This document shows positions 6,256-17,828 of a stretch of DNA of 24,035 nt, piece by piece. Position numbers and translations under genes: made by a program. The stretch comes from Thermodesulfovibrionia bacterium. Its GTDB lineage: Bacteria > Nitrospirota > Thermodesulfovibrionia > Thermodesulfovibrionales > SM23-35. Within the stretch, counting starts at the first letter, position 1; every line of letters begins with the position of its first letter. The stretch spans positions 1-24,035 of the forward strand of contig JBGQMP010000001.1 of the NCBI GenBank assembly GCA_041500685.1, in the 5' to 3' direction. The notes beneath the pieces are model-generated. The model made no database searches and was not told where the DNA came from. It was given only the letters and a program-made list of their open reading frames with translations.

Positions 6256-6427
6256 TATTCATAAATTCTTCTGTACGTGTGGAGGATATAATATTTTCGC
6301 TCATTCTCGGGCTAACGCCCTTCGAGGCTTTTGCCTCTTGATTTTTATAAAAATACTATCTGACTATCGGCAAAAGAATCCGCTCAAATACTATATCCTC
6401 CTTTACCGACTAATCGTTTTATGAATA
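6256..6427. mobile_element. 172-bp MITE-like or structured inverted-repeat element
   Basis: 10-bp perfect TIR (6256-6265/6418-6427), inner 15/16 IR (6281-6296/6386-6401), inner 8-bp IR (6328-6335/6369-6376), GGGC-TAAC-GCCC hairpin, central ATTTTTATAAAAAT palindrome. Confidence 0.55.
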
Positions 6428-6444
6428 GAGTGGGTTAACTTCAC

Positions 6445-7197
6445 ATGGATATTACCCTCGACAGTATACGGGATATAAAATTATATCAACCGAGGAAGGG
6501 ATACAGGTTTTCCGTAGACTCTCTTTTACTGTTTGATTTTGTGAACCTCAAGAATGTAAGGAGAATAGGTGACCTCGGCGCTGGGGCGGGTATTGTAGGG
6601 ATTCTACTTGCAAAGAGATACCCTAATGCAGAGATTACCCTTTTTGAGATTCAGGCAAGTCTTGCTGCGCTTGCAGAAAAGAATATTACCCTGAACTGTC
6701 TCGAAGAAAGGGTTAAGGTAATTAAAACTGATATAAGAGAAATAAAACTTCTTCACTCTTCACTCGTCACTCCGCACTCTTTTGACCTCCTTGTATCGAA
6801 TCCTCCCTTCAGGAGACTCAGAAGCGGGCTTATCAGTGAAGAGGAGGAGAAGGCCATTGCAAGACATGAGATAAAGCTGATGCTTCATGAGCTCATTGAT
6901 GCAGCATCATATCTCATAAAGGAGAAAGGCAGGTTCTGTATGGTTTATAACCCTTCCAGACTTTCAGAACTTATGGATATCTTGAAAAAGAGAGACCTGG
7001 AGCCCAAAAGGTTAAGGTTTGTGCATTCCCATATATCGTCAGAAGCGAAGATGGTTTTGCTGGAGGCCGCAAAAGGAGGAAAAGGCGGGCTGAAGGTTGA
7101 TAAACCACTTTTTATCTATAAAGAAGACGGCAGTTACACCGATGAGGTAATGGAGATATACAATCCGACGTATAGCAACTATTACTATCAAAAATAA
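6445..7197 (+). CDS. trmN6: tRNA1(Val) adenine(37)-N6 methyltransferase family SAM-dependent MTase (YfiC/YabB-like)
   Basis: YQPRKGYRFSVDSLLL N-terminus, DLGAGAG motif I, NPPF motif IV, ARHE, PKRLRFVH, EAKMVLLEA family motifs. Confidence 0.85.
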   Translation: MDITLDSIRDIKLYQPRKGYRFSVDSLLLFDFVNLKNVRRIGDLGAGAGIVGILLAKRYPNAEITLFEIQASLAALAEKNITLNCLEERVKVIKTDIREIKLLHSSLVTPHSFDLLVSNPPFRRLRSGLISEEEEKAIARHEIKLMLHELIDAASYLIKEKGRFCMVYNPSRLSELMDILKKRDLEPKRLRFVHSHISSEAKMVLLEAAKGGKGGLKVDKPLFIYKEDGSYTDEVMEIYNPTYSNYYYQK

Positions 7198-7283
7198 GAG
7201 ATTGCTTCGCTACGCTCGCAATGACAAATTGAATAATGACATCTCTTTTCTGTCATTGCGAGGAGCGTGCGACGAAGCAATCC
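7198..7283. repeat. Inverted REP-like doublet (TGTCATTGCGAG class)
   Basis: GATTGCTTCG (7200-7209) pairs with CGAAGCAATC (7273-7282); CTCGCAATGACA (7215-7226) pairs with TGTCATTGCGAG (7251-7262). Confidence 0.9.
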
Positions 7284-7435
7284 CGTTTATTAGAACTAAT
7301 TGAATTAACATGTTCATACTGTATTTTGGACAATATGAGTAGATATAAATTTTTTATTTATTGATTTACATAATTTATATCCTTATGCATCATTTTGATG
7401 TATAATAGAAAAAATTTTTGAAAGGAGGAGATGGT

Positions 7436-11568: not shown

Positions 11569-12588
11569 TCATTTTTCATTTAGCTTTAGGTCATAATCAG
11601 CATACTTGATATCTTCTTCATAGTCGGGATTTTTAATATCAACACTATAAATTTCCATATAGCTGGCTCCGGCATCAAGTCCTTTATTTATGGCTTCACG
11701 CAAGGTGCCACCAAATCTTTCTTTATCATCCGTATCACAAAGCATCTGAAAACCTACGTTTGCATAATTGGCATAGTCTTGAACTATCTGGTAAAGAGGA
11801 AAAGATTTGCCTATTTTGGCTGATAACCAATCGCCCTGGATACATAACCTGTCACCTAACTTCCCGTAGCCATAGCTCAGTATCTCCTGTACTACCCTCA
11901 AACTATCGCCAAAAGATACCGGCTGGGCAATGTTAATGGCCAGAGGAGTATCCGGAAATGCTTCTGCATAGGCATCAATTACGGTCATCCATGCCCAAAT
12001 GAGTTTCTCTTCTGTATAGCCCAATGATGACCAGAGTTCCTGATTATCCTTTTCCGGAAGATGCATTTCTCCATACTTACACGGTCCTGTCATATGAACC
12101 ACGACTATATCAGGATCATTGCTATACCGAATGCCTAATTTGCTGATGAATTGAACCCATTCCGTCAAATAAACCTCATCCCATGGAAGAGGCATGGAGA
12201 TTGTTTTGTCTTTATCTGTAAAATAATATCTGTTAGCCCCTTCAGCATAGACCCAGTCCGGAGTGAATTTACCGGCCCAGACCCTGATCATTATCTTTTT
12301 GCCGTGTCTGTGAGCTTTTCTAATGTTTCTATCAAGATATCTCCAATCATAAATACCTTTCTGAGGCTCTATTTTCTTCCAGGGCACACGCAGTGACAAA
12401 CCAGTCACTTCTTGGTTGGAAAGCACCTTTGATGAGAAAGATTTTCCCAACGCGTATACCCCGCCTATTTCCCCTGATTGTGCGAACGCAGGAGTAAGCA
12501 GGGAAAAGCAAATCAACAAATGAACTATCACTCCGAAAAACACAGTTGCTAAAGTTCGCATATGCAATCTGAAATAGAAGATGAACAT
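11569..12588 (-). CDS. Secreted glycoside-hydrolase-like TIM-barrel protein (GH-A clan/GH42-like), paralog A
   Basis: Signal peptide ending AFA|QS; GLSLRVPWKKIEPQKGIYDWRYLD, TPDWV, PLPWDEVYL, GEMHLP, GFQML, YMEIY. Start may instead be ATG at 12561. Confidence 0.72.
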   Translation of the reverse strand: MFIFYFRLHMRTLATVFFGVIVHLLICFSLLTPAFAQSGEIGGVYALGKSFSSKVLSNQEVTGLSLRVPWKKIEPQKGIYDWRYLDRNIRKAHRHGKKIMIRVWAGKFTPDWVYAEGANRYYFTDKDKTISMPLPWDEVYLTEWVQFISKLGIRYSNDPDIVVVHMTGPCKYGEMHLPEKDNQELWSSLGYTEEKLIWAWMTVIDAYAEAFPDTPLAINIAQPVSFGDSLRVVQEILSYGYGKLGDRLCIQGDWLSAKIGKSFPLYQIVQDYANYANVGFQMLCDTDDKERFGGTLREAINKGLDAGASYMEIYSVDIKNPDYEEDIKYADYDLKLNEK

Positions 12589-12721
12589 GCCTAATATTAG
12601 GAAGATTCAGACAAAAGAGCGGTGACTTAAAACACATTGTCAAATTTTTCTGAGAATGTCAGAGGGCTATCAAGGGGGGAATAGTGTAAAGAACACCCAC
12701 TGGCGTTTTGCTACTCACCAG

Positions 12722-12904
12722 TGTGCTGTCTGTAGCACTTCTTTAGAGTGTCATTGCGAGGGACAAAGTCCCGAAGCAATCTCACTACGAGATTGCTCGC
12801 GGAGTTTATCCTGAGTAGGAACTACAAGATTCTTCACTTAGTTCAGAATGACTCACGAAGGGCTTGGAATGACCCAGCAGTAAAGTTATTTAGCTGACAG
12901 GACA
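12722..12904. mobile_element. MITE-like cassette A carrying a nested REP doublet
   Basis: Ends GTGTGCTGTC (12721-12730) / GACAGGACAC (12896-12905), 9/10 IR; internal TGTCATTGCGAG...AAGCAATCTC and GAGATTGC...GGAATGAC (12749-12873). Confidence 0.55.
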
Positions 12905-12907
12905 CCG

Positions 12908-13060
12908 TGTAGTGTATCCATGAACGCTTTACAATCTTGTCATTCCGGACTTGATCCGGCCTACGACTCATGGAGAATCCAGTTTTTTTGCTTTTGGATT
13001 CCCGTTTTCACGGGAATGACAGGAGGAGCGTTATTGTAAAGATGAGTTAGATACACAACA
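12908..13060. mobile_element. MITE-like cassette B carrying a REP doublet
   Basis: Ends GTGTAGTGTATC (12907-12918) / GATACACAACAC (13050-13061), 11/12 IR; internal TGTCATTCCGGACTTGATCCGG...TGGATTCCCGTTTTCACGGGAATGACA (12938-13021). Confidence 0.55.
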
Positions 13061-13077
13061 CCAGAAAATTCAAAGTT

Positions 13078-13106
13078 TTGATTATATCTTTGGAAAGGGG
13101 TAAAAT
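13078..13106 (+). promoter_or_regulatory. sigma70-type promoter of hydrolase-like paralog B
   Basis: TTGATT (13078-13083), 17 bp, TAAAAT (13101-13106); AGGAAGG SD before ATG 13125. Confidence 0.55.
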
Positions 13107-13124
13107 ATTTTCAGGAAGGTTAAA

Positions 13125-14126
13125 ATGACATTTATCAGGAAGATCGCCATCTTGGTTTTCTTTGTCATCATTGTTTTTCCAAGAACTTCCCCGGCAGATT
13201 CATTTTCTGTAAAAGGCGTTTACAGTCTCATGAGAGGAATGGATGCCGTAGATCCGTCTGTAGTGAAACTGCCTTTCTTGGCAGGGGTAAGCATCAGGGC
13301 TCCCTGGCGAGCTATTGAGCCTAAGGAAGGGAAAATGGGATGGGATTATTTGGACAATGCCCTCAGTGAGGTTAAAAAGGCGAATAAAAAGGCAATGTTC
13401 AGGATCCTTCCGGGAATTAATTCTCCAGCCTGGGCATACAAAAAGGGAATCCCCTCTGTAGAAATTAAAGATGTAAACCAATATCATAAAACCTACGGTC
13501 AAAAGCAAAAAATTCCCTTGCCCTGGGATGAAACCTATCTGAATGAATGGGTAAAATTTGTTTCTCAACTCGGAGCAAGATATAACTCACATGATGAATT
13601 GGTATTAGTCCATATCGCGGGGCCGACGTATCACTCCGCTGAAATGCACCTGCCGAAGAAAGCAAATGCGGAACTTATGGTGAAGGCAGGTTATACAAAG
13701 GAGAAGATAGTCACTGCATGGGAAAAGGTTATAGACGCTTATGCAAAAGCTTTTCCTGATAAAGACCTTGCCTTAAATGTAGCCATCCCGCTTAGGGAGG
13801 ATGGAGCGATGGAAGAGATAATACAATATGGAATCTCAAAATTAGGGAAACGCTTGTGCATACAGGGGAACTGGTTAAGCGCTAAGACACTTGGATCTTT
13901 CCATCCATACAGGGTGATACGCGAGTATGGGAAGAAATATGGTGTAACCGTTGGATTCCAGATGTTGGACTCTGCTAAAGACAAACCTGAACGGCAGGGC
14001 TCACTCGAGACATCTATAGAACAGGGGCTGAAAGCCGGAGCGCACTATTTTGAGATATATCAGGCAGACATCAAAGAGCAAAAGAACAAGGCATTATTTG
14101 ATAAACTTGATAAAAAGCTGAGATAG
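13125..14126 (+). CDS. Secreted glycoside-hydrolase-like TIM-barrel protein (GH-A clan/GH42-like), paralog B
   Basis: Signal peptide MTFIRKIAILVFFVIIVFPRTSPA; GVSIRAPWRAIEPKEGKMGWDYLD, SPAWA, PLPWDETYL, AEMHLP, GFQML, YFEIY, colinear with paralog A. Confidence 0.75.
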   Translation: MTFIRKIAILVFFVIIVFPRTSPADSFSVKGVYSLMRGMDAVDPSVVKLPFLAGVSIRAPWRAIEPKEGKMGWDYLDNALSEVKKANKKAMFRILPGINSPAWAYKKGIPSVEIKDVNQYHKTYGQKQKIPLPWDETYLNEWVKFVSQLGARYNSHDELVLVHIAGPTYHSAEMHLPKKANAELMVKAGYTKEKIVTAWEKVIDAYAKAFPDKDLALNVAIPLREDGAMEEIIQYGISKLGKRLCIQGNWLSAKTLGSFHPYRVIREYGKKYGVTVGFQMLDSAKDKPERQGSLETSIEQGLKAGAHYFEIYQADIKEQKNKALFDKLDKKLR

Positions 14127-14156
14127 ATTACTATATTCTTCAGAATTCTTCAGACT

Positions 14157-14299
14157 TACTAAGGAGTTCATAAGTAAGGGCACGTAGTATGTCATTCCCG
14201 CTTGTCGGGAATCTTTCTTAAAGCACCAGAAGGATTGCGGACAAGCCGCAATGACAGAAATTAGTAGAGAATGTGGTTTTACTTTTGGTCTTATTAGTA
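14157..14299. mobile_element. MITE-like cassette with TA-starting TIRs carrying a REP doublet
   Basis: TIR 14157-14177 vs 14279-14299 (16/21); internal TGTCATTCCCGCTTGTCGGGAATC (from 14190) and GGATTGCGGACAAGCCGCAATGACA (14232-14256). Confidence 0.55.
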
Positions 14300-14348
14300 T
14301 CTGTGGGCAAATACCACATATGCCCTTTCCAGACAGCTCTCATATCGT

Positions 14349-14373
14349 TGTCATTCCGGCTTGACCGGAATCC
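14349..14373 (+). repeat. TGTC-tagged REP-like hairpin overlapping the GIY-YIG stop codon
   Basis: TGTC-ATTCCGG-CTTGA-CCGGAAT-CC. Confidence 0.9.
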
Positions 14374-14661
14374 TTCCGAGAATATCTTCATATAAATCCC
14401 TCAGGTCAGGATTATTCTTCCTGATAAGTTCTATCCTCTCCTGCTTGCTCATATTCTTTATCTGTCCCTTATAATCGCACTGAGACTGTTCTAACAAAAC
14501 TCAAAATGTACAAGTCTGTGCAAATAATATCTCGCTGTAAAGCACCGAGGGTTAAGATTGTTCTTATGCTCATAGACTCTTCGTACCAGATCATCTGTCA
14601 TCCCCACATAGAGGGTCGGCCTGGCATTAGCCATGATGTACACCGCAAAGTGTTTTTTCAT
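14351..14661 (-). pseudogene. Small standalone GIY-YIG nuclease (about 104 aa), inactivated
   Basis: Hand translation: [64 protein letters not shown][frameshift]QIKNMSKQERIELIRKNNPDLRDLYEDILGRIPVKPE*. In-frame TAG at 14491-14493; frameshift at 14465/14464. Confidence 0.9.
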
Positions 14662-14679
14662 TATAAAGCCGCATCAATC

Positions 14680-14783
14680 TGTCGTGCCGGCGCTTGTCCT
14701 CGCTTTGCCAAGGATCGGTCCAGCATTCTTCTTCAGAGAGATTCCGGTCAACCCGGAATGATACCCGACAAGCAAGAATGACA
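14680..14783. repeat. Degenerate nested REP cluster upstream of the GIY-YIG pseudogene
   Basis: GATTCCGGTCAACCCGGAATGA (14740-14761) is a near reverse complement of the 14349 hairpin; TACCCGACAAGCAAGAATGACA (14762-14783) and TGTCGTGCCGG (14680) are further decayed units. Confidence 0.75.
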
Positions 14784-14816
14784 AGAATTTCCACACAAAA
14801 CCGGAAGAACCGATTA

Positions 14817-17800
14817 CTATTTTTCCCATAGATAGATCTTTGATCTATAGCTTTCATAAACAACTTTAAAAGTTTGTTTTATGTAATCCACGGTTTTCCT
14901 GTCGTTTTCTTTTGGTAACTCGTAGTCAGGGTCAGACACAAACCAGACTCTATTATGTTTTGCTGTTATTTCTTTCAGTTCGTCCGGATTTTTTATGATA
15001 GGAGTACCAATGTATTTATCAATGAGACCCGGATATCCGCCCTCGCTTGTATCGAAAAACATTACTAACCTCAGGTAGGTTGAAATAGCGTAATCTGCTT
15101 TAATTTTATCATAATATTCCAGAGGAAATGATCTTACCATAATAAAGATATCTCCTTTCTTCATGTTTTCTTTTATGTATTTGGAAGTAGACTTAAAGTC
15201 GGTCCAGGTGACATCTTCTCGAACGTGATCTGGCGGGACAGAAGGGGTTTTAGAAAGCAAATAGAGTTTCAGAAAGGTGGTATTGGATGCGAGGAATATT
15301 GTCATCGATAACGCTATCAATGACAAAGAGGTTGAGAATCTGACGACGGTACTTTTTTCATGAACCATGCTTCTGAAAGAATTCATGAATATAATAATTA
15401 TAGCGGAGCCGGTGAGTATCAAGAATGGTTCAAGATTATAGATATAACGAGGAGCATTCACAGGCAAAAGATTGGTAAGACAGAGAGCGGGGACAAAAAG
15501 TATGATGTAAAGGTATCTTAAGGGTTTGTATTTTAAGAGCAGAAAAATACCCGCAATCAGGAACATAGTGAATAACCAGTTATTTTCAGTGAAGAAAAAA
15601 TGATCGATGTAGAAATAGGGGTCATACATCGGATCAAGGAAAAATAGTTTCGGAAGAGAAATATCTGCAATTTTTCCATTAATGAGGAGATAGGCATTTA
15701 AATACAGAATCCTCCTGCTCTGTTGTATGAATACAGTTAAGAATATTAAAGCAAAACTGGCCCATGCATGTTTGTTCCTGAGCCACGAGAGGTCAGATCC
15801 CTTATGGACTACTATTGCCGCCAGCATGGCAACAAGGAGAAAACCGGAGCCTTCCCAGCTTAAATACATCAGACTAAAGGATAGAGCTGTTAAATAAAGG
15901 AATCTTTTCTTTAAGGGGTTTGCATCTATTGCCTTGTATAGGAATAGAATAGTAAGACTTGTCAGGAACTGTGTCAGTTGAGGGTAAAAAACGGATTGGC
16001 TCCAGATTATGCAGGAGGGCAGAAAGGTTTGTACAGCAGCAGCTAATAATCCTGTTAATCTGTTAAATAGGGTTTTACCGAGGACATAAAGGAGCAATAT
16101 CTCAAGTGTTCCCCAGAATGCTGAATGTAATCGTCCTGCGTAGTCGTTAAATCCAAAGAGGCGCACAGGGACAGAAATAGAGTAAGGCAAAAGTTCGTAT
16201 GTAGTCATCGGTTTTACATAGGGGCCGATCACTTTCGAGGGGAATCCTCTATCCAAAAGGCCCTGCGTATATTCCATCATTGAAACCTCATCGTGATTCA
16301 GGGATAAATACGTAAGCCCATGTATTCTCATGAGGAAACCTACAATTATCAAGCATATTACAAGAAATGAAAAAAGAAGATTTGCTGATTTTCTGGACTC
16401 TCTGAGTACATCTTTGATCTTATATCTCTTTATCCTTGTACTTATGAACTCAGCAGATCGAAGAAGAAATAAGATTAAGAGTGAAACAAGAACGTACTTC
16501 AACTGGAAGGGGAATGAGCTATCAAATCTGACATCAAATTTTAACAGATAGATAAAGAATATAAAAAGTAAGGAAGGCATGTGTAATACACCATCTGTAA
16601 ATAGACGGTCTGACAAATTAGCATTGTCAATCTTGGCATATAAAAAGGCAATGATGAACCAGATGCACAACATGACAGTTATGACAGAAATTATGAAAGT
16701 AAGGAATTTTAAAAACTCTTGTACAATATGTGCAAAAGTAAAATCCATTTTCTTAATGCTTTTTGAGAGAACACCCCAGGGTTGGGATGGATATTCTGAA
16801 AGCAGTAGCGGTACTTTCCATGCAGACGAGTTAATATCCGGAATGTATTTTTCCGGAATTATATTTGATATAGTCCTCCATGTTGTATCAGCCGTTAAAG
16901 TGATTACTGAATTGCGATCATGGATATAACCCTCAACAAATAGACCCGGGGCAGTATCCCCGACTGTGACGCCTACGCCAATGGTATTTTGCCCGGAATG
17001 TAACAATAGGGTTAGATCATATATATCCAGACTTCCTTCAAAGAGATTGCCTTTTTTTACCGGTGTGCCATTTATGGTCAAGTCATAGATCGAACTTCCT
17101 GCGATTCCAACGATAGCATCCTTAACGGGTGACCTCAATGTAAATGATTTCAGGAAATATGCGGACCTTACAGTTGGTTCAGGATGCCACATCCAACATC
17201 CCGAAAGAGGCTTACCAAGTATGTAAGGTGCTATTCCCGACGTATACACCGGATATGAAGTAGATGTTCCCTCTATTTGTGCCTGCTTCCATCTTGAATG
17301 GTCGAAGTTGTGGAAGTACCATAGAATACCGTCCTGACGACCCTGTGTTTCTTCTACAGAAGAGACCTTCCATGTCCCATCTGTTACAAAAATATGTTCC
17401 CTCCCTGTAAGGTCGGTATATCCTCCCTTGAGAAGGAGTCTGGGGGGGCCTGGATAGCTCATTCGATAAACATATGTTGCAACTACATTCTTACCATGCC
17501 TTATCTTACCTGTTACATTATGGATGTCAGACAGATTCACTGACAAAAAGGTATCTACAGCAATTTTCTCCTCATTTACAAAAAGCTCTGCATTGTCAGT
17601 TGCAGCTATGGAAATCCATGCATCGGCGACATTATCAGGGATAAAGATTTCTTTGACAAAGTAGCCGTTTGGCGTTTTGTCGCCGGTGCTTATCCACTGA
17701 GCTCCGTTAAAATCGAGACTGTAACGATGCGGAGGATATTCAAAAATTATATGCCATAAAATATAACCGATGGAGAAACCGAGTAGAACCACCGGGATTA

Positions 17801-17828
17801 TCCCTAATAAGAGCTTCTTTTTCTGCAT
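14817..17828 (-). CDS. GT-C fold (ArnT/PMT-like, GT39/83-type) membrane glycosyltransferase fused to two N-terminal sugar-binding-like beta-sandwich domains
   Basis: N-terminal TM; two repeats of W-x-W...YF-K-F...a-l-VNG...l--G-N-i-v...D-tW; many TMs; LRIHGLTYLSLNHDE acidic motif (D513/E514), GRLHSAFWG, GKTLFNRLTGLLAAA; soluble C-terminal domain. Confidence 0.75.
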   Translation of the reverse strand: MQKKKLLLGIIPVVLLGFSIGYILWHIIFEYPPHRYSLDFNGAQWISTGDKTPNGYFVKEIFIPDNVADAWISIAATDNAELFVNEEKIAVDTFLSVNLSDIHNVTGKIRHGKNVVATYVYRMSYPGPPRLLLKGGYTDLTGREHIFVTDGTWKVSSVEETQGRQDGILWYFHNFDHSRWKQAQIEGTSTSYPVYTSGIAPYILGKPLSGCWMWHPEPTVRSAYFLKSFTLRSPVKDAIVGIAGSSIYDLTINGTPVKKGNLFEGSLDIYDLTLLLHSGQNTIGVGVTVGDTAPGLFVEGYIHDRNSVITLTADTTWRTISNIIPEKYIPDINSSAWKVPLLLSEYPSQPWGVLSKSIKKMDFTFAHIVQEFLKFLTFIISVITVMLCIWFIIAFLYAKIDNANLSDRLFTDGVLHMPSLLFIFFIYLLKFDVRFDSSFPFQLKYVLVSLLILFLLRSAEFISTRIKRYKIKDVLRESRKSANLLFSFLVICLIIVGFLMRIHGLTYLSLNHDEVSMMEYTQGLLDRGFPSKVIGPYVKPMTTYELLPYSISVPVRLFGFNDYAGRLHSAFWGTLEILLLYVLGKTLFNRLTGLLAAAVQTFLPSCIIWSQSVFYPQLTQFLTSLTILFLYKAIDANPLKKRFLYLTALSFSLMYLSWEGSGFLLVAMLAAIVVHKGSDLSWLRNKHAWASFALIFLTVFIQQSRRILYLNAYLLINGKIADISLPKLFFLDPMYDPYFYIDHFFFTENNWLFTMFLIAGIFLLLKYKPLRYLYIILFVPALCLTNLLPVNAPRYIYNLEPFLILTGSAIIIIFMNSFRSMVHEKSTVVRFSTSLSLIALSMTIFLASNTTFLKLYLLSKTPSVPPDHVREDVTWTDFKSTSKYIKENMKKGDIFIMVRSFPLEYYDKIKADYAISTYLRLVMFFDTSEGGYPGLIDKYIGTPIIKNPDELKEITAKHNRVWFVSDPDYELPKENDRKTVDYIKQTFKVVYESYRSKIYLWEK

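Follow-up and report, generated by a model that had tools for sequence, protein, structure and literature searches.

Is the small GIY-YIG nuclease gene that lies between two inverted hairpins in a Thermodesulfovibrionia bacterium (GTDB lineage Bacteria; Nitrospirota; Thermodesulfovibrionia; Thermodesulfovibrionales; SM23-35) the enzyme that multiplies those hairpins, as REP-associated tyrosine transposases (RAYTs) multiply repetitive extragenic palindromes (REPs)? We analysed a stretch of 24,035 nucleotides, hereafter the window (assembly GCA_041500685.1, contig JBGQMP010000001.1, positions 1 to 24,035 of the forward strand). A preliminary description of positions 14349 to 14783 had recognised a decayed GIY-YIG gene between inverted TGTCATT...AATC hairpins, and all parts of this arrangement are present in the sequence. 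Its statement that no characterised example is known is outdated: the pairing of a small GIY-YIG nuclease with its own hairpins was published in 2025 as the Ssn/SRM system (Chenal et al., Nat Commun 2025, PMC11893778), in a paper whose Discussion already likens the NTS-ssnA-NTS arrangement to IS200/IS605 and to RAYT/REP. The window thus holds a further family member, not a new kind of system, and opens no new field. We consider it very likely that the locus is a dead Ssn copy, and that its module of hairpins, gene and hairpin was brought in as the cargo of an ISL3-type miniature transposon.

The pseudogene and its relationship to the Ssn family

The gene occupies 311 nt of the minus strand (14661-14351) and is a small single-domain GIY-YIG pseudogene. 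Codons 1 to 56 (14661-14494), which include the RRVYEH motif, match the Pfam GIY-YIG domain (E 3.6e-7) with a score that passes the curated cut-off. When the copy is aligned with four intact relatives, exactly two lesions emerge: a GAG to TAG nonsense codon at 14493-14491, and a frameshift caused by the loss of four A's from an A-run, between 14466 and 14465. Past the shift, the restored frame continues to a C-terminal end of ...EDILGRIPVKPE and a stop codon. The hairpin GGATTCCGGTCAAGCCGGAATGA (14373-14351) supplies the final seven codons (RIPVKPE) and the TGA stop (14353-14351), confirming the earlier observation that the hairpin itself encodes the end of the gene. Both tyrosines of the GIY/YIG motif are kept, the glutamate codon falls at the 4-nt deletion, and the copy is otherwise collinear with its intact relatives. 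The window copy yields no enzyme today.

Ssn proteins are single-domain GIY-YIG proteins of approximately 95-105 residues (CDD cd10448) encoded by genes flanked by hairpin repeats, either NTS (CGTCATTCCCGCGMAVGCGGGAATCYRG) or the broader SRM, and the published criterion of homology is E < 1e-10 to Neisseria SsnA (PMC11893778). SsnA binds the hairpin in single-stranded DNA alone and cleaves only that strand, a few bases upstream, properties that were shown for four homologues in a study that included proteins of Neisseria and Wolbachia. The C that follows the palindrome is critical for binding, the three bases before the palindrome (GTC) are critical for cleavage, and the enzyme reduces transformation by NTS-bearing DNA (PMC11893778). 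Nicking at such hairpins, which the preliminary description had proposed for the nuclease, has been shown experimentally for its homologues.

The window product is 46% identical to a 94-residue gonococcal SsnA-type protein (E 1e-14), an E value that passes the published threshold. The intact relative P0003 shows 45% identity to the same Neisseria gonorrhoeae protein over 91 residues (E 8e-25, pairwise), and tblastn with P0003 against 7.3 Gb recovered this gonococcal open reading frame (ORF) at E 3e-15. We took this ORF (L164:692-976; L and G numbers designate loci and genomes) as the SsnA orthologue by its length, by the presence of Y6, Y17 and E64, the residues mutated in PMC11893778, and by the NTS hairpins on both sides, not by annotation. 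The record that contains it (NZ_CP119140.1), 2.17 Mb of N. gonorrhoeae sequence filed as a plasmid and almost unannotated, looks like a mislabelled chromosome.

Across 34 sequences of the clade, Y8, Y18, R28, H32, E66 and N85 are invariant, and both the tyrosine pair of GIY/YIG and the cofactor-binding glutamate are present. The intact relatives are 95-113 residues long, with GIY-YIG (residues 6-77) as their sole Pfam domain. An AlphaFold model shows one compact domain with a predicted local distance difference test score (pLDDT) of 89, falling below 50 in the hairpin-encoded tail (residues 100-104). The nearest solved folds were UPF0213 BH0048, Slx1 and the UvrC N-terminal domain, in a fold search whose matches were weak and consistently GIY-YIG. 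A PDB sequence search gave no match at E 0.01, and NCBIfam returned only a weak, sub-threshold match to group I intron endonucleases.

As in the published family, hairpins lie on both sides of the gene and are dispersed elsewhere in the genome. The two flanking hairpins (14349-14373 and 14739-14763) are inverted copies of one another, 86% complementary, with their tags pointing outward; in the upstream copy the G of the tag has changed, giving TATC in place of TGTC. Two more decayed copies lie at 14680-14703 and 14761-14784, and the intact counterpart of the former, GTCATGCTGGCTTGTCCAGCAT, stands at about -41 in the nearest relatives (L004, L005 and L101). The hairpin variant of this lineage has a 7-bp stem and a CTTGT loop, reads TGTCATTCCGGCTTGTCCGGAATC on the tagged strand, and in the window keeps the GTC before the palindrome and the trailing C. 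Strict tag-hairpin matches (GTCATT-stem-loop-stem-AATC) number 5 in the window against 0.23 expected, and 0/100 shuffles reach 5. Including directly read remnants, we counted approximately 14 units of three related hairpin families between 7.2 and 14.8 kb, for which the earlier figure of about a dozen was a fair estimate. Rfam gave no family matching the hairpin regions, with two chance-level matches only.

Pairing of gene and hairpins across homologues

A protein search identified 649 homologues of approximately 104 residues, mostly in Nitrospirae metagenome genomes, nearly all of which end in ...GRIPDKPE, the translated hairpin. For the comparison of loci we took 80 from species genomes of many phyla, among them Nitrospirota, Ignavibacteria, Patescibacteria, Gammaproteobacteria and Omnitrophota, and counted hairpins with a strict detector of perfect stems. 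A hairpin was found 20-130 nt upstream of the start codon in 48 of the 80 loci, most commonly starting at -45 or -44, and an inverted hairpin at the 3' end in 53, of which 41 start exactly 7 nt after residue 96. Both flanking hairpins, with tags outward, were detected in 34 loci. The preliminary description had named enrichment of hairpins near homologues as a check of the association, and an enrichment was found, with 3.39 hairpins per kb near the gene vs 0.20 per kb more than 500 nt away.

We additionally identified the same layout in sister subfamilies of the same bacterial order (42-56% identical), with GAAA-loop, GCGAG or CCGAG hairpins; the GAAA-loop hairpins around the sister genes are identical to the published NTS consensus. 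As controls, no such hairpins were seen at four UvrC loci or at an unrelated small GIY-YIG gene whose genome is rich in hairpins. The fixed distances across phyla, the sister subfamilies and the negative controls together indicate that gene and hairpins are a real functional pair, as had been proposed, and not chance neighbours.

The downstream hairpin is read in three ways, as IPDKPE and a stop, as DSGQAGMT..., or beyond an earlier stop codon, and thus in different reading frames, indicating that the DNA is conserved and not the peptide; the disordered tail of the AlphaFold model agrees with this. All seven stem variants seen at least three times are perfectly complementary, showing that compensatory changes maintain the stems. 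DNA similarity between loci usually ends at the outer ends of the hairpins, and the match between the flanking stem variant and the dominant variant of the genome is not tight, the two differing, for example, in G060. Upstream of the ssn gene in L007 and L033 we noted runs of partial hairpins (GTCATTCCGGCTTGTCCGG-CTT repeated), which may reflect slippage, CTTGTC being present both in the loop and where the tag joins the bases before it. Anchoring of this nuclease subfamily at tRNA genes was considered and rejected, as no tRNA was found in the window or adjoining the gene in 60 loci.

A GIY-YIG enzyme, I-TevI, represses its own promoter, and the hairpins could likewise serve only the expression of the gene they flank, as a promoter-proximal operator and an intrinsic terminator. 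Many intact relatives have an extended -10-like box, TGATATAAT, directly after the upstream hairpin and before the start codon, and their stop codon lies within the downstream hairpin, where a terminator would lie. However, no T-run follows the hairpins, tens to hundreds of copies of them lie at sites distant from any such gene, and their direct binding and cutting as single-stranded DNA has been published (PMC11893778). An exclusively regulatory role is thus very improbable; a regulatory use could exist alongside the role of nuclease target, but is not the whole story.

We regard as scarcely credible the explanation that the hairpins are ordinary REPs spread by a RAYT, and that the nuclease gene came to lie between two such REPs by accident. 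The genome of the window does contain eight matches to Y1_Tnp (PF01797), and REP/RAYT systems share the layout of a gene between inverted repeats. Nevertheless, tagged hairpins lie within 2.5 kb of 0/7 Y1_Tnp loci of this genome, and in the approximately 1.5-kb flanks of 0/7 Y1_Tnp loci of G126, G039 and G072. Y1_Tnp has no match in G122 and G131, both rich in hairpins, and a single broken one in G072. Judged as a REPtron, that is, a RAYT with its GTAG-tagged REPs or REPINs, the locus encodes a GIY-YIG enzyme instead of a Y1 protein of the HUH fold (PF01797), and its tag is TGTC or CGTC, not GTAG. The distances between gene and hairpins are fixed to the base across phyla, and homologues have been shown to bind these hairpins (PMC11893778). 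The RAYT link was accordingly rejected, the Y1_Tnp genes examined lying elsewhere and unflanked by tagged hairpins.

The probable ISL3-type carrier and its nested insertion

The module lies within a 678-bp element (14134-14811) with ISL3-type terminal inverted repeats of 22 nt and a perfect 8-bp target duplication, GATTACTA (Table 1). Target duplications of 8 bp are typical of ISL3. In the closest relatives a 22-nt inverted repeat, GGTTCTTCNGGNTTTTGTGTGG, stands just outside the hairpins and bounds the cassettes in approximately 12 loci, with perfect 8-bp target duplications in L002, L010, L016 and L023, and 7/8 in L046. The genome G133 contains at least eight cassette copies, and all of its repeat-end pairs are cassette-sized; four aligned copies are approximately 97% identical (pairwise BLAST) from repeat to repeat, and have unrelated flanks with direct 8-bp duplications. 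In one cassette copy of G133, L062, the 5' half of the gene is replaced, relative to L023, L046 and L036 of the same genome, by sequence of a miniature inverted-repeat transposable element (MITE) with a hairpin doublet, apparently through loss of the segment by recombination between hairpins.

Elements of the same order that encode an ISL3 transposase (L150, L152 and L156) have GGYTCTTC...GTGG ends, inverted, at their boundaries, and L152 has a 7/8 target duplication. PF01610, the ISL3 transposase domain, was identified in 20/121 genomes of the order, two of which, G041 and G109, also bear the cassette. In G109 the same ISL3-type ends, with an 8/8 duplication, surround a different small nuclease-like ORF. 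By eye, the ORF of L139 (G109:C21:6100-7200) and L140 (G109:C79) resembles DUF559/Vsr-like endonuclease-domain proteins (...LWLKLRRKQLKGHQFYRQKTIGDFIADFYCP...LRVLRFSD...), and L140, with a perfect 8-bp duplication, is an internal-deletion derivative of the L139 element. The simplest reading of the element in the window is a non-autonomous ISL3-type transposon that carries an ssn module.

The left terminal repeat is interrupted by a nested MITE-like element. Rejoined across it (14134-14156 and 14300-14307), the repeat reads ...TTCTTCAGACTTATCTGTGGG, and is 18/22 identical by hand alignment to GGTCCTTCAGACTTTTCTGTGG, the reverse complement of the right-end repeat of L002. The stretch 14286-14306, which could be taken for the terminal repeat of the cassette, forms the end of the nested MITE, with the two parts of the true repeat on either side of this MITE. 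The ends of the nested MITE were fixed by alignment of 7 copies. The segment 14152-14304 recurs many times in related genomes, elements of this type are multi-copy in same-genus and same-family genomes, and another copy lies inside the ssn gene of L036. The TA at both ends suggests an IS630/Tc1-type origin.

An orthologous empty site for the G037 cassette was sought in G139, where the site is rearranged, the cassette lies elsewhere in the genome, and no clean boundary is seen. The genes that flank the element in the window, GH42-like genes on one side and a PMT_2-domain gene (14817-17828) on the other, have no DNA match in five same-genus genomes. This marks the stretch as accessory DNA and makes a presence/absence comparison impossible, so that the target duplication stands in for it.

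The following history very probably accounts for the locus. An Ssn enzyme, if it behaves as its homologues do, would bind the hairpin in single-stranded DNA and cut a few bases upstream on the tagged strand. The module of hairpins, gene and hairpin arrived as cargo of the 678-bp non-autonomous element, which duplicated GATTACTA on insertion; the enzyme that mobilised this element was most probably an ISL3-family transposase acting in trans. After arrival, the gene acquired the nonsense codon and the 4-nt deletion, several hairpins decayed, and the 141-bp TA-flanked MITE, with a hairpin doublet of its own, inserted into one terminal repeat. The approximately 50 other tagged hairpins in this genome would be targets of the pseudogene's relatives.

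Several observations weigh against the reading of the locus as a dead Ssn copy on an ISL3-type carrier. The degenerate SRM search motif, HGTCWYN(0-2)YYVSBRHN(0-5)WNVSBRGN(0-2)RNCYNB (PMC11893778), matches the NTS consensus, but no hairpin of the window and not the canonical CTTGT-loop unit either; as this motif is a search aid built from 29 genomes, we did not take the mismatch as excluding membership of the Ssn family. The flanking hairpins point outward here and inward at the gonococcal locus, and target recognition by the enzyme of this clade is presumed by analogy with the Neisseria and Wolbachia homologues. The left terminal repeat is imperfect, and was reconstructed across the nested insertion. 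Finally, PF01610 has no match in the genome of the window (G000) or in the cassette-bearing G004, G037, G126 and G133, an absence that is weak evidence, since these metagenome assemblies are incomplete and assemblies of this kind often lack insertion sequences.

Table 1. Positions of the pseudogene, hairpins and transposon features in the window
Feature	Position	Strand	Basis or remark
Ssn-family GIY-YIG pseudogene	14351..14661	-	Pfam match, homologues, lesion alignment; 46% identity to gonococcal SsnA-type protein, E 1e-14
Hairpin at 3' end of gene, tag outward, encoding RIPVKPE and TGA (14353-14351)	14349..14373	+	Same position (start 7 nt past residue 96) in 41/80 loci
Decayed hairpin TGTCGTGCCGGCGCTTGTCCTCGC, inner unit of upstream doublet	14680..14703	+	Direct reading
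Hairpin 5' of gene, tag outward, TGTC changed to TATC	14739..14763	-	Inverted-copy comparison
Decayed tagged hairpin TGTCATTCTTGCTTGTCGGGTATC, abutting the 14739-14763 hairpin	14761..14784	-	Inverted-copy comparison
Target-site duplication, left, GATTACTA	14126..14133		Identical to 14812-14819; its first base completes the stop codon of the upstream GH42-like gene
Left terminal inverted repeat, outer part, TATTCTTCAGA[ATTCTTCAGA]CT, with 10-nt internal tandem duplication	14134..14156	+	Severed from inner part by nested MITE
Nested 141-bp MITE-like element	14157..14299		TA at 14157-58 and 14298-99; inverted ends of about 23 nt, CTAAGGAGTTCATAAGTAAGG...; tags-out hairpin doublet
Tagged hairpin TGTCATTCCCGCTTGTCGGGAATC, doublet unit 1 in nested MITE	14190..14213	+	Tag-hairpin scan
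Tagged hairpin TGTCATTGCGGCTTGTCCGCAATC, doublet unit 2, inverted, in nested MITE	14233..14256	-	Tag-hairpin scan
Left terminal inverted repeat, inner part, TCTGTGGG	14300..14307	+	Direct reading
Right ISL3-type terminal inverted repeat (reverse complement GGTTCTTCCGGTTTTGTGTGG)	14791..14811	-	Also found at the cassette ends of about 12 related loci, and at the ends of ISL3-transposase elements of the order
Target-site duplication, right, GATTACTA	14812..14819		Provides stop codon of PMT_2-domain gene 14817-17828 (-)
Sister-family hairpin pair GTCATTGCGAG...GAAGCAATC inside insertion of about 170 nt	7199..7283		Present in G000 and G003; absent at orthologous site in G002 and G006
Cluster of tagged hairpins and remnants	12749..13021		GCGAG type at 12749-12781; GAAA-loop (NTS-like) doublet at 12941-13021

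Further repeats occur elsewhere in the window. Through an insertion of approximately 170 nt (7167-7340), which carries two GCGAG-type tagged hairpins, a methyltransferase gene (6445-7197) has acquired a different 3' end, and another insertion of approximately 190 nt occupies the same spot in G004. Upstream of this gene, 6262-6438 holds another repeat of approximately 140 nt, which starts with the ISL3-repeat-like AATTCTTCTGTACGTGTGGAGGATATAAT; 6300-6438 matches dozens of sites in same-genus genomes at 75-96% identity. The hairpin-rich intergenic region 12589-13124 lies between two divergent paralogous genes with weak GH42-like matches, 11569-12588 on the minus strand and 13125-14126 on the plus strand.

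Spread of the hairpins and comparison with known systems

Whether the nuclease itself multiplies the hairpins, as the preliminary description proposed, is a separate question from the pairing of the two. As the GIY-YIG counterpart of a RAYT, it would cut hairpins where the DNA is single-stranded, and repair or replication by the host would then copy hairpins, doublets and the cassette, an idea also raised in PMC11893778; we think this unlikely. We are similarly doubtful of its corollary, that the cassette with the gene would act as the autonomous element, and solo hairpins and doublets as non-autonomous ones.

Several distributions are consistent with multiplication by the nuclease. In the genome of the window, gene-less doublets share the tags-out layout of the cassette (41 tags-out vs 8 tags-in), and the doublet spacer starts and ends like the cassette interior (CTTTCT... 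...GAAGG). All 7/7 sampled genomes with an intact gene of the close subfamily contain CTTGT hairpins, from 14 to 368 in number. At least 20 hairpins of the three families were found in 30/47 gene-bearing genomes vs 17/73 without the gene, an association (odds ratio 5.8, p 1.8e-5) among relatives that are not independent. These hairpins flank none of the Y1/RAYT genes at the loci examined, which agrees with Di Nocera et al. 2013 (PMC3733652). In G133, the nuclease is the only ORF in at least eight recent copies, and no ISL3 transposase was found there.

Other evidence points away from it. GIY-YIG enzymes hydrolyse DNA without a covalent intermediate, and so cannot rejoin strands as HUH transposases do. 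The sole demonstrated role of the family is restriction of incoming single-stranded DNA, limiting transformation (PMC11893778). For the cassette, the 8-bp duplication and the ISL3-type ends point to a DDE transposase, and in G109 such ends also enclose an unrelated ORF. The insertions that can be delimited exceed the size of a hairpin, namely the 141-bp MITE and the approximately 170-nt insertion at 7167-7340. Hairpin-rich genomes without the gene exist (G122 with 421 hairpins, G099 with 240, G131 with 101 and G072 with 91), and no small GIY-YIG gene was found in G122, G131 or G072; the genome of the window has approximately 50 hairpins of three patterns, and only this dead gene. The correlation between repeat abundance and the gene, which the preliminary description had named as a check, is only partial.

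We put forward, as a tentative and rather improbable proposal, that Ssn nucleases are the missing multiplying partner of the TGTC/CGTC-tagged REP superfamily, through a hydrolytic, repair-dependent route, with ISL3-type carriers as a second, independent means of spread. The transposon route must be separated from nuclease-driven spread before Ssn is called the "transposase" of CGTC-tagged REPs.

What the locus adds to PMC11893778 is the CTTGT-loop variant, the ISL3-type 678-bp carrier, and a hairpin-carrying MITE that splits a terminal repeat. The Ssn family now reaches into the Nitrospirota, with a type of hairpin that escapes the published SRM motif, so that surveys relying on this motif count too few of these systems. 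The nuclease subfamilies of a single bacterial order each have a hairpin family of their own, and any further pair of nuclease and hairpin is a candidate reagent for cutting single-stranded DNA at specific sites. A module of nuclease and target can ride conventional miniature transposons with clean target duplications, a simple route to wide phyletic spread.

Among known systems, the CGTC-tagged REPs are reported to have no dedicated transposase and not to flank tyrosine transposase genes, in agreement with the present loci (Di Nocera, De Gregorio and Rocco 2013, PMC3733652). The hairpins described here resemble that superfamily as short stem-loops with a (C/T)GTC tag at one end, abundant, mostly intergenic, and often in inverted pairs; PMC3733652 names no partner enzyme, a place that Ssn fills at least as binding and cutting partner. 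REPtrons share with the present system a gene between inverted, dispersed, tagged hairpins, gene-less doublets like REPINs, and a partial correlation of gene presence with repeat abundance, and differ in having an HUH tyrosine nuclease-ligase where a GIY-YIG hydrolase is found here, and a GTAG tag where TGTC or CGTC is found. With ISL3 insertion sequences, MITEs and mobile insertion cassettes, the carrier shares 22-nt GGYTCTTC...GTGG repeats, an 8-bp AT-rich duplication, the lack of an internal transposase, and near-identical multiple copies. It differs in carrying a nuclease gene along with the hairpin targets of that nuclease, and no matching transposase was found in the many-copy genomes.

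The likeness to the Ssn system itself (PMC11893778) extends to a single-domain GIY-YIG protein of approximately 100 residues, with 45% identity to the gonococcal SsnA-type protein and the same catalytic residues; to a gene between inverted tagged hairpins ((C/T)GTCAT, palindrome, then C), further copies of which are scattered over the genome; and to sister subfamilies of the same order flanked by hairpins identical to the NTS consensus. The window copy differs in its 7-bp stem and CTTGT loop, its outward tags, its stop codon inside the hairpin and its state as a pseudogene. Its host is a Nitrospirota (Thermodesulfovibrionales-like) metagenome genome, and its carrier is an ISL3-type miniature transposon, which PMC11893778 does not mention.

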